Below, one piece after another: positions 6,807 to 19,757 of a stretch of DNA of 21,069 bases. Origin of the DNA: a virus (Duplodnaviria > Heunggongvirae > Uroviricota > Caudoviricetes). The translations under genes were made by a program, and so were the position numbers. Each line of letters opens with the position of its first letter. Positions within the stretch are counted from its first letter, which is position 1. The notes beneath the pieces are model-generated. The model did no database searches. It had not been told where the DNA came from and worked only from the letters and a program-made list of their open reading frames with translations. Location of the stretch: the IMG/VR virus record IMGVR_UViG_2630968342_000014; one strand, written 5' to 3'.

Positions 6807-7094
6807 CAAAGCAGTGGCTGTTGTGGTGACCGGTGCTGATCTCCGGCTTGCGGTTATTTCAGACTCTCACGGGCGTTTAATTGCCCCGCCGAACAGCTCT
6901 TTTCCGCAATAGCTGCAATGTCTTTCGCGCATCAGCCTGCGCATTCACCACAACTCTAAGGATTCTCTCTGGTTGAAAATACTTAGCTGTTATGTGCCTG
7001 CTTTTAGCCACATCAGGCGAGGTGGACCTGGTTATTCCCCAACAACAAGGATTCGGTTAATCTGGTTATCCCCAACAACGCAAAAGGAAAAGAA

Positions 7095-7529
7095 ATGTCC
7101 GGTAATATCTACACGTTGTACAAATCCCACTGTGAAAATGTTGGAAAGTATCGGGGCATTGAAATCAGTGGGATAGTGTCATCAGTCGAAATAAGCAAAG
7201 TGGAATCAAGGGCAACATTACTTACTCTTCTGGATCTTGTCTTACATGAGCACCGGAAGAAATTCGGCACTCCCTATAATCAGTTGAATGGGAAAAAGGC
7301 TCTGGTTCACCTTATTCTGATGAAGCATCACTGGATGCCAAAACAGATTAATGAGATGAAATTTGATGAACTTCTTCTTTCAATTCAGGATGAACTCACA
7401 CTTGATAAAATAAGCGTAACCGCCCAGAAATTTTTAGATTATCGAGACTGGAGATCACAAATTCATCACTTTGATGATTTTGACGAAAATGAATGGGATC
7501 CTAATTTGTCTGCACAATATCTAAAGTAA
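7095..7529 (+). CDS. Hypothetical accessory protein (144 aa), no recognisable domain
   Basis: ATG at 7095 with AAAAGGAAAAG Shine-Dalgarno. Visibly more AT-rich than flanking phage genes. Opposite orientation to the surrounding early-left genes; two 18-19-bp direct repeats lie just upstream and a plus-strand intrinsic terminator lies downstream. Confidence 0.55.
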   Translation: MSGNIYTLYKSHCENVGKYRGIEISGIVSSVEISKVESRATLLTLLDLVLHEHRKKFGTPYNQLNGKKALVHLILMKHHWMPKQINEMKFDELLLSIQDELTLDKISVTAQKFLDYRDWRSQIHHFDDFDENEWDPNLSAQYLK

Positions 7530-7765
7530 CATCCTGTGATAAAACCGTGATTTCCTGATCCAGTTTTTTTAAGGAGTCTATTGTTTCCTGTCGATAAGAC
7601 AGCACTTCACGAAGCTGGTTTATAGCTGCCAGCTTCTTTGTCATCCACTCATAAATTTACTCATCTGTGTAGCTAGGCGCGACGATTTTGGGTTCTGTTT
7701 TGTGCATTTCACACCTCCTCAAGTTATCAGTTACTTGTTGATGGGGACCAGATTGTTAAAGAGCT

Positions 7766-7789
7766 AAGCGTCCTGTAGGGCGCTTTTTT
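7766..7789 (+). terminator. Intrinsic terminator downstream of the 144-aa gene
   Basis: AAGCGTCC-TGTA-GGGCGCTT followed by TTTTTTG: 8-bp stem including one G-U pair, tetraloop, T-run. Oriented for plus-strand transcripts only. Confidence 0.5.
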
Positions 7790-7874
7790 GTTGCTAACGA
7801 ATCATCCTGGACTTCATATGCCCCAGGCGGCTACTTCGTGGGTGTCCTGCCTGTTCGTTGTCTTAACACCTTTA

Positions 7875-7915
7875 AGTTGTAATTTAGTTGTGGTTTTGAA
7901 TGTTGTCAACAACTT
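7875..7915 (-). promoter_or_regulatory. PL-like leftward promoter overlapped by OL-like operator motifs
   Basis: On the minus strand: TTGACA (complement of 7904-7909), 17-bp spacer, TAAATT (complement of 7881-7886). Flanked and overlapped by the operator motifs found between cI and cro (ACAACTTTATG at 7909-7919 and 9562-9572; AGTTGTGG at 7886-7893 and 9595-9602). Confidence 0.5.
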
Positions 7916-7972
7916 TATGTGGTTTGAACGAGTAGCCAAGGAGTGCAAGGATTATCAAAAAAAGGAGGTTGT

Positions 7973-8863
7973 ATGGAAGACGCGCTTTACGCTTTTAATT
8001 ACACACAGAACCGGGACAAGTTATTTGCTAACTTGATTAGCATCATTGATGGAATCATTGCAGATGGAGTTGTCCGTGAAGAGGAGGTTCTTTACTTAGA
8101 TACATGGTTACTTGAAGCAAAGCAGATTATCAATAATGGAGTTATAAAAAGTCTATCTGCTCGGGTGTCGGATATTCTTGCGGATGGAATAATCACATCA
8201 GAAGAACGTGATGACCTTAAAAATAGCCTTCTCCAAATACAGAGGGAAATTCTTGATATCCCTGAAATTGATTTTTACTCCAAGGATGTAGATGTCCATT
8301 TACTTAATGGACTATGTAAAGGATTAATTGCTGATCGGAACTTAACTCAAGAAGAAATAAGATATCTTAATTGGTGGCTTGAGCAAAATGGAGCTTTGAA
8401 GAACAACTACCCAGGAAAAAAACTTTATGCACTTGTAAAGGAAATTCTTAAAGATGGTGTTATTACTGAAGATGAGAGTTTAACTCTACATAAGGCATTA
8501 GTAGACTTCACAGGATGTGACTTGGAAAGTGGGGTGGTGGATGGTTTGGCGACCAGGCTGCCTATTGATGTAGGGGCTTCGATAGAGTTAGAGGGTAAAA
8601 CCTATTGTCTTACAGGCACTTTTGTTGCAGGAAAGAGAGCCGTAGTTGAAAATTTGATTAAAAATGCTGGTGGGAACATCAGTAGTGGAATTACTCAAAA
8701 GTTGGATTTTTTAGTAATTGGGACGCTTTCCTCCCGTGATTGGAAATTCTCTAGTCACGGAAGGAAGATCGAAAAGGCTATATCTTATAGGGATGATAAT
8801 GGTGCAAAACTTAAAATTATTTCTGAAGAAATGCTTTTCGATGCATTACCAAGTTCGCGATGA
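7973..8863 (+). CDS. BRCT-domain protein with four N-terminal ~40-aa helical repeats (accessory gene)
   Basis: The track ORF starts at GTG 7943, but the ATG at 7973 has an AAAGGAGG Shine-Dalgarno. C-terminus (GKTYCLTGTFVAGKRAVVENLIKNAGGNISSGITQKLDFLVIGT...KLKIISEEMLFDAL) has the pattern of a BRCT domain like the C-terminus of NAD-dependent DNA ligase. N-terminal half carries four repeats of the form L-x-x-ILADG-x-IT-x-EE-x-x-L. AT-rich. The 3' end overlaps the cI 3' end. Confidence 0.7.
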   Translation: MEDALYAFNYTQNRDKLFANLISIIDGIIADGVVREEEVLYLDTWLLEAKQIINNGVIKSLSARVSDILADGIITSEERDDLKNSLLQIQREILDIPEIDFYSKDVDVHLLNGLCKGLIADRNLTQEEIRYLNWWLEQNGALKNNYPGKKLYALVKEILKDGVITEDESLTLHKALVDFTGCDLESGVVDGLATRLPIDVGASIELEGKTYCLTGTFVAGKRAVVENLIKNAGGNISSGITQKLDFLVIGTLSSRDWKFSSHGRKIEKAISYRDDNGAKLKIISEEMLFDALPSSR

Positions 8864-9532
8864 CCAGAATACCCTACCTATAACATGAATTCTGGCTCGT
8901 CTATCTTCAAAGGTGAGTATTTCATCTGGGTACTCATCTTTGTTGAAGCTTCTAAGAATCAAGCCACCGTCAGGTAAGTTGATAAGTATTTTAACCCTTA
9001 GCAATACACCATCTCGTACGGCATAAAGATCGCCATCACGAATAGGAACGGTTTGAGAAATATCAACGGCAACAAGATCTCCATTATTGAGAACCGGTAA
9101 TAAACTGTTCCCCCATATTTGTACGATCTTGGCATTAGATGCACATACGCCAGATTTTCTCAAATCTGCTCTTCTTAACGGAAACCAGTCAATAGCTGAT
9201 TCAACTATTTCAGCCAGACATCCGTTACCTGCCGATAACTCGACATCTAAAACAGGAATGTTTACGAAAATATCGGGGTCTAATGCGGTGCTTTCTGCTT
9301 CTTTTACAACAAGATCAGGTATGGATGCGTTGTCTTCAATACCAAGTTGTAACCACTTTTGTGATACACCTAAAACTTTTGCAATTTCTTTAATTTTGCG
9401 CGGTTGTAGAGTTTCGCCATTCTCTATTTTGGCTACAGATTGTTGTGAAAGTCCAATTTTTTCAGCTAGTTGAGCTTGGCTCATGCCAGCTTTCTCTCTA
9501 CCTATCTTTAATCGTTCTGCCAGTGTTTTCAC
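8846..9532 (-). CDS. cI: cI-like prophage repressor (HTH_XRE N-terminus, S24 LexA-like autopeptidase C-terminus)
   Basis: N-terminal XRE-type HTH (LAERLKIGREKAGMSQAQLAEKIGLSQQSVAKIENGE). Probable Ala-Gly cleavage site (ELSAGNG). Catalytic Ser (WGNSLLP) and Lys (LLRVKIL) in the C-terminal domain. GTG start at 9532 with AGAGGGA Shine-Dalgarno. Divergent from a Cro-like gene. Confidence 0.9.
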   Translation of the reverse strand: MKTLAERLKIGREKAGMSQAQLAEKIGLSQQSVAKIENGETLQPRKIKEIAKVLGVSQKWLQLGIEDNASIPDLVVKEAESTALDPDIFVNIPVLDVELSAGNGCLAEIVESAIDWFPLRRADLRKSGVCASNAKIVQIWGNSLLPVLNNGDLVAVDISQTVPIRDGDLYAVRDGVLLRVKILINLPDGGLILRSFNKDEYPDEILTFEDRRARIHVIGRVFWSSRTW

Positions 9533-9559: not shown

Positions 9560-9645
9560 TTACAACTTTATGTTTTAGCTTTCCAACATCTAAAAGTTGT
9601 GGTAAAAGTTGTTAATGTTGTATTCTTGCAGCTCGTAACAACTTA
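9560..9645. promoter_or_regulatory. OR-like operator/promoter region between cI and cro (divergent promoters)
   Basis: 136-bp intergenic region with at least four copies of the half-site ACAACTT/AAGTTGT in both orientations (9562, 9594, 9606, 9638). The same motifs recur near 7870-7920. Confidence 0.6.
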
Positions 9646-9667: not shown

Positions 9668-9916
9668 ATGACACCTGAGCAATTAGCCTTATCGGAGGCA
9701 ATCGCTCTGGCTGGTGGTCAATCAGAATTGGCTCGGAAGCTCACAGCCAGCAGCGGTCATTTAGTAAAGCAACAACATGTCTGGAACTGGTTGAACAGAG
9801 AAAAGCGTCCCCCTGCAAAGCTTTCGATATTCATTGAAAAGACCACTGGCATATCAAAAGAAAAATTACGTCCAGATATTTTTCAAAAGATTAAAGATTC
9901 ATCAGATGAAAAGTAA
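9668..9916 (+). CDS. cro: Cro-like / YdaS-like small HTH regulator
   Basis: 82-aa ORF divergent from cI. ATG at 9668 with AAAAAGGAGAAAG Shine-Dalgarno. HTH-like segment (GGQSELARKLTASSGHLVKQ). First gene of the rightward operon. Confidence 0.65.
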   Translation: MTPEQLALSEAIALAGGQSELARKLTASSGHLVKQQHVWNWLNREKRPPAKLSIFIEKTTGISKEKLRPDIFQKIKDSSDEK

Positions 9917-10496
9917 CCACAGTTTTAAGGAGATAGCCGTGGGTAAGCATCACTGGAAAATAGAAAAACAGCCTGAGTGGTACGTGAAAGCTGTCAGAAA
10001 AACTATCGCGGCGTTGCCGGGGGGTTACGCTGAAGCCGCTGACTGGCTGGATGTAACAGAGAACGCTTTATTCAATCGCCTTCGTGCCGATGGCGATCAG
10101 ATTTTCCCGCTGGGATGGGCAATGATTTTACAACGTGCTGGTGGAACTCACTTCATTGCTGACGCTGTGGCGCAGTCTGCAAATGGCGTCTTTGTGTCTC
10201 TTCCTGACGTCGAGGATGTGGACAACGCCGATATTAACCAGCGTCTGCTGGAAGTCATTGAACAGATCGGCAGTTATTCCAGACAGATTCGTTCAGCAAT
10301 CGAAGACGGTGTAGTGGAACCGCATGAGAAGACAGCAATTAACGACGAGCTGTACCTCTCAATTTCGAAGCTCCAGGAGCATGCAGCACTGGTCTACAAA
10401 ATCTTCTGCGCTCCAGAAAATAGTAACGCCCGCGAGTGTGCAGCTCCGGGCGTCGTGGCGTCGATTGCTTCTGGTTGTGGAGAAACTAACGCATGA
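9906..10496 (+). CDS. CII-like regulatory protein (YdaT / phage CP76-type, by position and size)
   Basis: The track ORF starts at TTG 9834; the in-frame ATG at 9906 (MKSNHSFKEIAVGK...) overlaps the cro-like stop. About 196 aa. Immediately downstream of cro as in YdaS/YdaT-type immunity modules. Family assignment from memory. Confidence 0.5.
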   Translation: MKSNHSFKEIAVGKHHWKIEKQPEWYVKAVRKTIAALPGGYAEAADWLDVTENALFNRLRADGDQIFPLGWAMILQRAGGTHFIADAVAQSANGVFVSLPDVEDVDNADINQRLLEVIEQIGSYSRQIRSAIEDGVVEPHEKTAINDELYLSISKLQEHAALVYKIFCAPENSNARECAAPGVVASIASGCGETNA

Positions 10497-17011: not shown

Positions 17012-17028
17012 TTTTGTGGAGAAAGTTG

Positions 17029-17385
17029 ATGCGTGATATGTATGAAGTAATGGATCGTTGGGGAGCTTGGGCTGCTTCAGACAATAGCGGAGTGGACTGG
17101 CAGCCGATAGCGGCTGGTTTCAAGGGACTTTTACCTCATGGCAAAAAGTCACGGATTCAGTGTGATGATGACGAAGGCATCATGATAGACAGTTGTGTGG
17201 CTCGGTTGAGAAGGTATAAACCAGAGGAATATGAGCTCATCATCGCCCACTTTGTTATCGGTATCTCATTACGTACTATTGCGAAGAAGAGAAAATGCTC
17301 TGATGGCACAATTAGGAAGGAACTGCAAACTGCAATGGGGTTTGTTGACGGCTGTTTAGCAATGTTAGCTTATAGTATGGCATAA
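17029..17385 (+). CDS. Q: Late-gene antiterminator Q (small Q family)
   Basis: The ATG at 17029 has a GGAGAAAG Shine-Dalgarno (the track starts at TTG 17014). Motifs MDRWGAWAA, IAAGFKG, QCDDDEG and KCSDGTIRKELQ match the small Q-antiterminator family of phage 21/Rac-type prophages as I recall them. Confidence 0.8.
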   Translation: MRDMYEVMDRWGAWAASDNSGVDWQPIAAGFKGLLPHGKKSRIQCDDDEGIMIDSCVARLRRYKPEEYELIIAHFVIGISLRTIAKKRKCSDGTIRKELQTAMGFVDGCLAMLAYSMA

Positions 17386-18579
17386 AAAATAAAATAGATT
17401 TACTGCCGATTTTTCAAAAAAGACTGGGAACTGTTTATATCCAACGTAAATAAGGCCTCCATAAAACATGGCTGATGCGAGATATTTAACAGTTCTCATC
17501 CTTTTTTTAGCTTTATCAATCAAACCTGTAATGCTACTCTTAATACTATCTGCATTATCTTTGATTTCTTTATTTTCTTCAAACTTTAAATACTTATCGA
17601 AAGCGGACTCCACTCGAGAACGTAAGTTGTCGAATGTTTCATTGAATATCTCAATAGAAATGTAATTGACTTTTTTTATCATCCAAAGTCCTGCGATAAT
17701 CAATATTGCTTCGGTTGTTTCATTAGCCTTCACTAAGCCACCAGCAGCTATTAATGCACCGGGAATAGTCAATGCTTTTGTCTGATTAGATGATATGAAT
17801 TCGTTAATTTTACTCGTGAACTCAAGATTTTTCTCATCGAGTTCGTTAAGAATTTTATTTACAGAAAACCTCTTTGTGTAAATCTCATATAGTTCATCAT
17901 ATTTTTTCCTGACGAGTTCAGTAGAGTTAAGCAAGTCAAAGAAATTGAACGTACCATTTGCTTTAAATACTTCGTTTATGGCTGAGCGTATAACGAGCTT
18001 GCGCTCGCTTTTGTGTAAATCATTGATTTTTATTGTGTCGAGAAGCTCCTTTATAATTTCATATTTAAGAGACGAGTTCGATAAGCGATTAATCTCGCTA
18101 TATTGTAAAAAATGCGTGAGTTCGACTGTATAACTTTTGTCTTCATTGGTGAAAAATAAGACAGAGCAGTCACTGTTATGATGATCAGCAATTAATGAAA
18201 GGATATCTTTCCACATAAAGAAAATATGGATTTTTTCGATGCTTTCATTCTTAGAAGTAGGGAGTATTAACGGCGTTCCGATGATATAATTTTTCGGAAG
18301 AGCGTTTTGGGTGTTTACTCTAGACCAAAAAGACTCAACATTCTCATAAATTATAGCGTCATCCCAAGATGAAGCTTGGCGATCTAGCCAAATTTCATTA
18401 TTTTCGATGCAGGTTGTTGCCTTTTTATAACCTATAGATTGTAACAGTCTAATTATTTCAGAACTATTTACAATAACAATGCTTTCTTCAAGACTTATGA
18501 CAGTGTAGTAGCCCTCAACTCTGCTTGAGGCTCCGTTAATAATCTGCGCTAATCTTGATAAGTCATCAGCAATTGTCAT
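17365..18579 (-). CDS. Membrane protein (404 aa): about 265-aa soluble N-terminal domain plus C-terminal transmembrane segments; second gene of the AT-rich cassette
   Basis: The ATG at 18579 lies 2 nt after the upstream stop (coupled). Hydrophobic stretches ALTIPGALIAAGGLV, AILIIAGLWMI and YLASAMFYGGLIYVGY near the C-terminus. AT-rich. The 3' end overlaps the 3' end of Q by 21 bp (convergent). Confidence 0.65.
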   Translation of the reverse strand: MTIADDLSRLAQIINGASSRVEGYYTVISLEESIVIVNSSEIIRLLQSIGYKKATTCIENNEIWLDRQASSWDDAIIYENVESFWSRVNTQNALPKNYIIGTPLILPTSKNESIEKIHIFFMWKDILSLIADHHNSDCSVLFFTNEDKSYTVELTHFLQYSEINRLSNSSLKYEIIKELLDTIKINDLHKSERKLVIRSAINEVFKANGTFNFFDLLNSTELVRKKYDELYEIYTKRFSVNKILNELDEKNLEFTSKINEFISSNQTKALTIPGALIAAGGLVKANETTEAILIIAGLWMIKKVNYISIEIFNETFDNLRSRVESAFDKYLKFEENKEIKDNADSIKSSITGLIDKAKKRMRTVKYLASAMFYGGLIYVGYKQFPVFFEKSAVNLFYFLCHTIS

Positions 18580-18581
18580 TA

Positions 18582-19757
18582 TTAGCTGTCTCTATATCTT
18601 TTGAGTTCATCATAATTTGCCTGACTCAATTTTATCACAATTTCGCATTTGTTGTCAGTGAGAATTACAGGCTTATTTGACTTTTCGTCTCCAATAGCTC
18701 CACGCATTATTTTCAACTTAAAATTATTGTCGTTATCTGCCACTTCAATTGTAAGCGCGCTTTCAGCTGCTTTAGGAGTTGGTTCAAATTGAGGGTCAAT
18801 CTGGAAACCATTAAGATTAACAAAATCGACAAACGTTCCCTTACATTTGTGTGAATCAGTCAGGCATGAGTCAATTATTTTTGAAATATCCTCTATCTTA
18901 ACGGACTTATTTCCGTGTTTATCTTTTGATTTTTTTTCCAGTAAGGATTTAACTTCATTGTCAATAGTATCACGCAGTACACGACCGAGTGAGTTTTTAC
19001 TAGCAAAAATATCTATAGCACTGAATAATTGCTGAATGCTTCTTTTATTGTCCGAATCATGTCGGCAACCTAATGAGTCTTTGAAAAAATCGCTTTTAGA
19101 TTTACCTTGCAAGAAATGTACATATGAGTCACCCTTGTTTTCTGGATAACTGGCTTCGAATAAAGTTAAATCGAACATCGCAGCCTGCCGTAAGGCATCG
19201 GTATTAATTGGATTTAATCTTGTTGGGGTCAACTTATCCGAATCAAAGTCATAGGCGCTTTGTTTATCAACCATTACGATTAGAAGTTTCCCCAAATCCT
19301 CTGGTTCGGTAGACTTATAGTGGATGAAAACAACGCTCCCCCCCTGAAGTTGGGCAACTCTCGATTCGTTATTAGCATTATGTTTAAGCTTCTCTATTAT
19401 AGCTCTAGATAAATCAATGAATTCATTATTTTTATTAATGTATTTTTTTAGGATCGTAGGAATGGATGAAGGGTTGTGATCTGAGTCTAGGAAGTTATGA
19501 AATTTGTTTTTTCGGCTAAATTTTTTCTCAATTCTGGTTATGAATTCAGATGTGACTTCATTTTTTAGATCCCAAACTTCACCTAATCGATAATCAAATG
19601 CTCTTGAATCATTTTTTTCAAGATTTGCTGTTACAGCACCAATAGGAAAGTACGATTGTTTGCCCAGCACTACAACATGAGGCGTGGCACCGCATTTATC
19701 GCAAGCTACAGTTGGGTCGTCAAGAACATTGCCACATTCTAAACAAGTTATATCCAT
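18582..19757 (-). CDS. Zinc-ribbon plus NdpA/YejK-like (nucleoid-associated protein family) domain protein; first gene of the AT-rich cassette
   Basis: ATG at 19757. N-terminal C-x2-C-x12-C-x2-C zinc ribbon (CLECGNVLDDPTVACDKCG). Central region GGSVVFIHY...LLIVMVD...YVHFLQGKSKSDFFKDSLG parallels the E. coli YejK/NdpA blocks GGFVLFCHY...YLTFLKG...DFFMDFLG, recalled from memory. Strongly AT-rich with A/T-ending codons. Confidence 0.65.
   Translation of the reverse strand: MDITCLECGNVLDDPTVACDKCGATPHVVVLGKQSYFPIGAVTANLEKNDSRAFDYRLGEVWDLKNEVTSEFITRIEKKFSRKNKFHNFLDSDHNPSSIPTILKKYINKNNEFIDLSRAIIEKLKHNANNESRVAQLQGGSVVFIHYKSTEPEDLGKLLIVMVDKQSAYDFDSDKLTPTRLNPINTDALRQAAMFDLTLFEASYPENKGDSYVHFLQGKSKSDFFKDSLGCRHDSDNKRSIQQLFSAIDIFASKNSLGRVLRDTIDNEVKSLLEKKSKDKHGNKSVKIEDISKIIDSCLTDSHKCKGTFVDFVNLNGFQIDPQFEPTPKAAESALTIEVADNDNNFKLKIMRGAIGDEKSNKPVILTDNKCEIVIKLSQANYDELKRYRDS

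Follow-up and report, generated by a model that had tools for sequence, protein, structure and literature searches.

The locus examined here raises the question of what a BRCT-domain protein might do in the immunity region of a lambdoid prophage, where its gene lies between the left operators and a cI-type repressor gene. The stretch of DNA that was analysed (the window, 21,069 nucleotides of the viral record IMGVR_UViG_2630968342_000014) contains on its + strand an open reading frame spanning 7943–8863, in which the start ATG at 7973 gives a protein of 296 aa. The gene and the elements around it are as follows.

7766–7785, + strand: intrinsic terminator, an 8-bp GC-rich stem followed by a T run (terminator scan and sequence)
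7866–7923, no strand assigned: OL operator cluster, ACACCTTTAAGTTGT at 7866–7880 and ACAACTTTATGTGGT at 7909–7923, repeats common to the OR region
−35 at 7909–7904 and −10 at 7886–7881, − strand: strong leftward promoter, TTGACA-17-TAAATT, interleaved with the operators and taken to be PL (consensus scan 10/12, PWM score 15.6)
7924–7952, + strand: candidate weak promoter of the BRCT gene from the PWM scan, with TTGAAC (7924–7929), a 17-nt spacer and an extended −10 TG-c-AAGGAT (7944–7952)
7963–7968, + strand: Shine-Dalgarno sequence AGGAGG, 4 nt before the ATG, read from the sequence and kept in diverged loci
7973–8863, + strand, stop codon included: coding sequence of the BRCT protein, 296 aa including the TerB-like repeats (open reading frame with ribosome-binding site, PHROG 3989)
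8846–9532, − strand: cI-type repressor with HTH_3 and Peptidase_S24 domains (Pfam E 1.4e-15 and 1.1e-14)

Setting of the gene and its candidate promoter

The setting agrees with the first-pass annotation, which had described an AT-rich gene convergent with cI and adjoining an operator cluster: the GC content is 38% against 45.9% for the window, the 3' ends of the two genes share 18 nt, and the ACAxC-N5-GTTGT sites at 7866–7880 and 7909–7923 lie 50–107 nt upstream of the gene and carry the same motif as the OR sites at 9561–9621. The repressor gene, in turn, faces a YdaS/Cro-type gene (9668–9916, +) across the operator-rich OR region. The protein is identical to WP_000389078.1, annotated as a BRCT domain-containing protein, and matches PHROG 3989, which bears the same annotation, over positions 2–295 of 296 (E 1.5e-128). 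The novelty implied earlier therefore does not hold, the gene belonging to an annotated and widespread family.

In E. coli the prophage is inserted beside mlrA. Region 7700–9000 is 100% identical in several complete E. coli genomes, with "STEC" or "G" strain names and human sources on two of these matches; with coverage of at least 80%, it occurs in 47 of the 5,426 complete E. coli genomes. A dN/dS of 0.035–0.054 indicates strong purifying selection on the gene. Among 50,697 phage records no DNA nearly identical to it was found; only the flank 7000–7865 matched, to SfIV-type phages, and this similarity stops at about 7862, so that the gene forms part of an exchangeable immunity module OL-gene-cI-OR-cro. 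A 92%-identical copy (L043, IMGVR_UViG_2906160580_000010, gene start 2237) has a stop after 241 codons though tblastn aligned residues 1–295; pseudogene formation or an error in the sequence of that one locus may be the cause.

The BRCT gene cannot use the cI transcript here, and the strong terminator at 7766–7785, as read from the sequence, probably isolates it from + strand transcription arriving from upstream. The candidate promoter at 7924–7952 was not called by the consensus promoter scan; its hexamers and their spacing are kept in 10 loci encoding proteins of 74–100% identity, with a spacer sequence that varies. This conserved promoter-like block with a variable spacer and the upstream terminator both speak for a promoter of the gene's own. 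The −35 abuts the operator at 7909–7923, the centre of which lies at about −43. In lambda, OR2 sits at a similar position relative to PRM, and bound repressor could thus stimulate transcription of the BRCT gene; by this analogy, the promoter–operator geometry suggests repressor-stimulated expression in the lysogen.

At the other end of the gene, the tails of the BRCT gene and cI overlap by 8–18 nt in every enterobacterial cluster (8846–8863 in the window; also in L003, L005 and L046–L136). No convincing terminator was found between the two genes, the sole candidate being a weak hairpin at 8895–8918 inside cI, and convergent transcription could therefore couple their expression.

Two further pieces of the prophage deserve description in their own right. 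Next to the BRCT gene lies a moron-like second insert, an ECs1072-family phage-associated gene (7095–7529, +; NCBIfam E 1.7e-46, PHROG 5286, 38% GC), which is directed against the early operon on the left, with a strong + strand terminator behind it. Terminators near it are located at 7611–7636 and 7766–7785, and two small leftward ORFs (about 7706–7650 and 7644–7501) overlap its 3' end. Further along, a two-gene reverse cassette of 33–37% GC (17365–18579, −, and 18582–19757, −) directly follows the Q antiterminator gene (17014–17385, +), a slot that in lambdoid phages carries cargo such as Stx. Its 404-aa product has no Pfam match, while the 391-aa product belongs to the NA37 nucleoid-associated proteins (PF04245, E 1.2e-23). 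E. coli strain 2018-166, near-identical in other respects, has in this place a gene with a shorter annotation of about 287 aa and a gap between it and the 404-aa gene.

Helical units and BRCT domain

The encoded protein is built from two copies of a helical unit followed by a BRCT domain.

8000–8254, + strand: helical unit 1, residues 10–94, four helices with the ADG-x-I-x-x-x-E loops D31/E38 and D71/E78 (AF2 and conservation; pI 4.3)
8282–8512, + strand: helical unit 2, residues 104–180, a copy of unit 1 with D121/E128 and D161/E168 (duplication E 2e-12, structure and conservation)
8588–8845, + strand: BRCT domain, residues 206–291, with conserved T214, G215, R222 and K265 and the family motif SRDW-x5-GRKIEKA

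The C-terminal BRCT domain proposed from the sequence is borne out by Pfam, PF00533 matching residues 206–290 above its cut-off (E 1.3e-6, 29 bits against 21.3), and 78 of the 83 relatives match it as well. The window protein has the alpha/beta BRCT fold, with a four-stranded parallel sheet and flanking helices. By profile, the solved structures that come closest are two BRCT domains, that of RFC1 (E 1.8e-8) and that of NAD-dependent ligase (E 5.7e-7). The S/T-G after beta1, the K at the start of alpha2 and the additional R of the RFC1/LigA class are all found; T214, G215, R222 and K265 align with identical residues of the human RFC1 (p140) BRCT and are kept in 79–82 of the 83 family members. 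In BRCT domains of the RFC1/LigA type, which bind dsDNA ends carrying a 5' phosphate, these positions form the phosphate pocket. By extrapolation from RFC1 and LigA, the window protein would likewise bind DNA ends; BRCT domains also bind phosphoproteins. The RFC1 and LigA domains, however, belong to large replication and ligation enzymes, while the BRCT of the window protein is joined only to acidic helical bundles and contains the family-specific SRDW-x5-GRKIEKA insert. Some database names suggest a subunit of a DNA ligase or polymerase, a reading that is rejected since the similarity is confined to the BRCT region.

The pI is 4.5 for the acidic N-terminal half and 9.2 for the basic BRCT region. 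The four repeats noticed at first are real and conserved, but they do not form an even tandem array, being spaced by 40, 50 and 40 aa and folded into two four-helix bundles. Their motif, (A)-D-(G)-x-(I/L)-(T/N)-x-x-E, has its conserved Asp at residues 31, 71, 121 and 161, and each copy sits in a loop between two helices of the AF2 secondary structure. The 90-aa four-helix unit is itself duplicated (unit 1 against unit 2, BLASTP E 2e-12, 39% identity over 67 aa). Among 83 homologues, the D and the E at +7 are 79–100% conserved in all four repeats, far above chance. No clear match to the N-terminal fold emerged among solved structures, TerB-like domains included.

No transmembrane or hydrophobic segment was found in the 296-aa protein, the maximum 19-residue Kyte-Doolittle mean being 1.52, and a membrane-anchored exclusion protein is thereby ruled out.

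The likeness of the repeats to TerB was upheld at the level of the motif only. Paired acidic ADG...E motifs in helix-loop-helix elements, a TerB-type feature, are shared with the TerB/DjlA N-terminal domain (PF05099), Shango and Bunzi, in the form of ADG-x5-E. In contrast, the window protein has no match to PF05099 at E ≤ 1; some relatives give Pfam matches below threshold, 13 of the 83 reaching that profile at E ≤ 0.1 (9.5e-5 for the best) and three reaching DUF533. With E. coli DjlA, hhalign aligned 27 columns covering one motif only (E 0.064), and with a Shango SngA it found no similarity. TerB membership is thus not convincing by Pfam or hhalign, and the repeats are labelled here as a TerB-like motif rather than filed as a TerB domain.

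A related observation concerns a YmfL/CII-like regulator of the same prophage (9834–10496, +), the C-terminal motif of which, EDGVVEPHEKTAINDEL, resembles the ADG-x-I-T-x-x-E repeats. The repeats of the BRCT protein are weakly matched by NCBIfam YmfL (E 1.6e-4) and PHROG 6499 (6e-5), and the helix-loop-helix motif may therefore have a wider distribution among phage regulators.

Relatives, fusions and genomic neighbours

An exhaustive search at E ≤ 0.001 yielded 2,857 representatives of clusters at 50% identity, spread over many bacterial phyla and temperate phages. The commonest sizes are about 295 aa (two units and BRCT) and about 210 aa (one unit and BRCT, the short form). Among cultured phages, relatives occur in the K139/Kappa group, in several Pseudomonas phages and in one Sulfurimonas phage, and no cultured coliphage with a relative was present among the phage records searched.

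Linkage to cI recurs among these relatives. A cI-type repressor lies within 800 nt, mostly within 150 nt, in about 19 of the 22 sequence clusters, in both gene orders. In the enterobacterial lambdoid prophages (69–83% identity) the pair is always convergent with the overlap of 8–18 nt; convergent pairing is also found in Citrobacter, Serratia and other hosts, and a lineage at 35% identity is again convergent with cI, with two other small genes between. The BRCT protein and cI diverge in step (69–83% and 72–83%), while in the loci L088 and L112 the BRCT protein is 71–72% identical and cI 52–58%. Elsewhere the gene lies 3' of cI on the same strand, as in K139, in an unrelated element with a primase gene, on a metagenomic contig and in Stutzerimonas phage PG1, sometimes with the integrase next; the arrangements cI-BRCT, cI-x-BRCT-int and cI-x-BRCT are seen in three lineages besides K139.

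Judged by sequence comparison, the window protein appears to be an orthologue-level relative of Orf2 of Vibrio phage K139 (NP_536630), with 33% identity over 95% of the length (residues 6–286; tblastn E 1e-38, pairwise BLASTP E 3e-48). Both consist of two helical units and a BRCT domain along their full length, and both genes adjoin cI in a lysogeny module; phages Kappa, VPUSM 8, 919TP and VcP032 encode the Orf2 protein as well, with an equal degree of identity. The 1999 abstract of Nesper and co-workers reportedly describes Orf2 as involved in preventing superinfection, which could perhaps mean help to repressor immunity and not exclusion. According to its record, K139 has a lysogenic promoter and a mapped lysogenic transcription start upstream of cI-orf2-glo-int, and a passage of a review (PMC7997343) credits "K139 (Orf2)" with superinfection immunity, citing Nesper et al. 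1999. The settings differ in that K139 is a P2-like phage in which orf2 follows cI in the same direction within that operon, whereas the window prophage is lambdoid and its gene converges on cI, with a candidate promoter of its own at OL. In addition, no glo homologue is noted in the annotation of the E. coli prophage identical over the gene region. The suggestion that the locus carries a lysogeny-associated exclusion gene accordingly gains indirect support, by way of Orf2, with its lysogenic operon and the superinfection immunity credited to it in that review passage, and of the recurrent adjacency to cI. The resemblance to lambda rexAB and sieB and to P22 sieA and sieB, by comparison, is one of position and function only, that of a lysogeny accessory gene with PL/OL on one side and cI on the other. 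The scans of Pfam, PHROG and PADLOC gave no match that links the window protein to these exclusion proteins, and it is soluble and non-membrane, with its gene opposite to cI.

The helical unit and BRCT also occur fused to other domains, namely to DEDDh exonucleases (PADLOC candidate PDC-S48, NCBIfam PRK06195), to an HhH and BRCT region, and in a 2,042-aa SF1 helicase with an MTES_1575 nuclease. PDC-S48 shares one helical unit and the BRCT with the window protein (E 2.4e-7, residues 119–251, profile positions 239–377 of 411), and PRK06195, a "DNA polymerase III epsilon"-type DEDDh-BRCT protein, matches residues 202–289 (E 2.7e-7). Unlike PDC-S48, the window protein is without the DEDDh 3'-5' exonuclease, a domain that was matched in the fused relatives; it has no RNase_T match and carries a second helical unit instead. 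PDC-S48 is an unvalidated PADLOC candidate for which no paper was found, and the literature yielded no functional study of prophage or defence BRCT proteins, PDC-S48 or TerB plus BRCT.

Neighbours of the short forms were called with a greedy ORF caller, which missed the BRCT gene in 17 GC-rich loci. In a set of 63 short-form loci spread over many phyla, the genes directly alongside were heterogeneous and no recurrent partner was found; a separate DEDDh exonuclease was the commonest of these neighbours, at 4 of 116. About 80% of the relatives in the short-form-query sample have no cI-like neighbour, from which it follows that the module can work without CI, and for most of them no cI-like gene and no identifiable defence gene lies nearby. 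One full-length, two-unit relative is a chromosomal orphan with housekeeping genes around it.

The TerB-domain system Shango has been validated in defence, and a complete copy (SngA E 1e-34, SngB 5e-168, SngC 2e-213) lies within 5 kb of the short form in Hymenobacter-type loci (L164, L165, L171, L178, L179, L191 and L205) and in one Thermodesulfobacteriota genome (L197), the order and orientation of the genes differing between loci. The one-unit BRCT gene of L164 and L165 begins 130 nt after sngC on the same strand. The Shango-adjacent short form could be a fourth, accessory component of the system, or the two could just share a defence island. In the annotated identical prophage copy, none of the SngABC genes (TerB SngA, BrxD-like ATPase SngB and helicase SngC) was found in the region examined.

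Possible roles in lysogeny

The best explanation of these observations is a soluble cytoplasmic accessory protein of the prophage lysogeny/immunity module. Tentatively, and with somewhat less than even confidence, it may bind DNA at 5'-phosphate ends or nicks and so block the DNA of a superinfecting phage once this has been injected. Its expression in the lysogen would start from a weak promoter of its own at the OL operator, where bound repressor could stimulate it. Its basic, RFC1/LigA-class BRCT domain would then bind 5'-phosphorylated ends or nicks through the T214-G215/R222/K265 pocket, such ends presumably being exposed on the newly injected linear phage genome or on replication intermediates. 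The binding might block ligation, circularisation or replication, or recruit a host nuclease, and the superinfecting phage would be excluded after injection while the integrated prophage is left untouched. For the two acidic four-helix units, with two D...E loops each, the candidate functions are binding of a cation or ligand, regulation and oligomerisation. The fusions to nucleases and a helicase, the DEDDh neighbours and the Shango systems near short forms favour this reading in that they point to a DNA-directed module. The conserved phosphate pocket, the linkage to cI, the superinfection immunity credited to Orf2 and the purifying selection count in its favour as well. Against it stand the weakness of the promoter, the many short-form-sample relatives with neither a cI-like nor a defence neighbour, the orphan two-unit relative among housekeeping genes, and the fact that no validated PADLOC system was matched, only part of the unvalidated PDC-S48.

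The constant company of cI could also mean that the protein is an accessory of the repressor switch, its BRCT domain sensing DNA damage or replication intermediates and modulating CI, either in its RecA-stimulated S24 self-cleavage or in the strength of repression, so as to tune induction and immunity rather than exclude phages. The adjacency to an HTH-S24 repressor in both gene orders, the co-divergence of the two proteins and the retained 3' overlap, which leaves room for convergent-transcription or antisense coupling, all accord with such a role, and the prevention of superinfection ascribed to K139 Orf2, as far as the review passage goes, would fit a stronger immunity. However, the loci L088 and L112 suggest module exchange over a tight protein pair, the fusion partners are nucleases and helicases, not regulators, and the short-form relatives mostly lack a cI-like neighbour; this role is considered rather unlikely. 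The same fusions bear on another proposal, that the protein serves phage DNA metabolism or counter-defence, capping or escorting phage ends and nicks against host exonucleases, or acting as a nuclease-less decoy for DEDDh-BRCT proteins of the PDC-S48 type, during infection, the establishment of lysogeny or induction. It has the targeting module of its exonuclease-bearing relatives with the nuclease absent; its promoter overlaps OL, so that the repressor could equally repress the gene; and the PG1 gene has the repressor on one side and a series of co-directional genes on the other. The K139 gene, on the other hand, belongs to an annotated lysogenic operon, the AT-rich, terminator-flanked and reverse-oriented gene is typical of lysogen-expressed morons, and the Shango-adjacent members favour defence over counter-defence, all of which makes counter-defence improbable.

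The D...E loops, which are TerB-motif-like, together with the relatives that reach PF05099 and the orphan long form, would also be compatible with a cation-responsive stress or host-fitness factor like TerB-type proteins, with no direct part in phage–phage conflict. This is very improbable, as TerB membership is not established, the BRCT domain and its nuclease and helicase fusions point to DNA, and the gene is strongly concentrated in phage lysogeny modules. Returning to exclusion by the binding of DNA ends, a bolder version may be imagined in which a single protein is wired to the repressor: CI at OL would activate the divergent PRM-like promoter, the BRCT would read 5'-phosphate termini or nicks, and the acidic TerB-like bundles would gate the response by a cation or infection signal, this sensor module then being the targeting part of the exonuclease- and helicase-bearing relatives (PDC-S48-type) across many phyla. 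Taken in full, this version is hardly likely.

Several elements are known already, namely the PHROG 3989 family, the genetic precedent of 1999, and the exonuclease-bearing cousins listed as a defence candidate. The family is nevertheless very large and concentrated in lysogeny modules. If the BRCT domain truly reads the ends or nicks of incoming DNA, it would provide a simple, enzyme-free route of exclusion after injection, and it would offer a handle on what the exonuclease-fused PDC-S48 relatives and the nearby TerB-type systems detect. The predicted promoter–operator geometry would, moreover, be a second, PRM-like example of repressor-activated expression of an accessory gene. As the gene is carried by mlrA-side prophages of some clinical E. 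coli, it may shape which phages those strains acquire.
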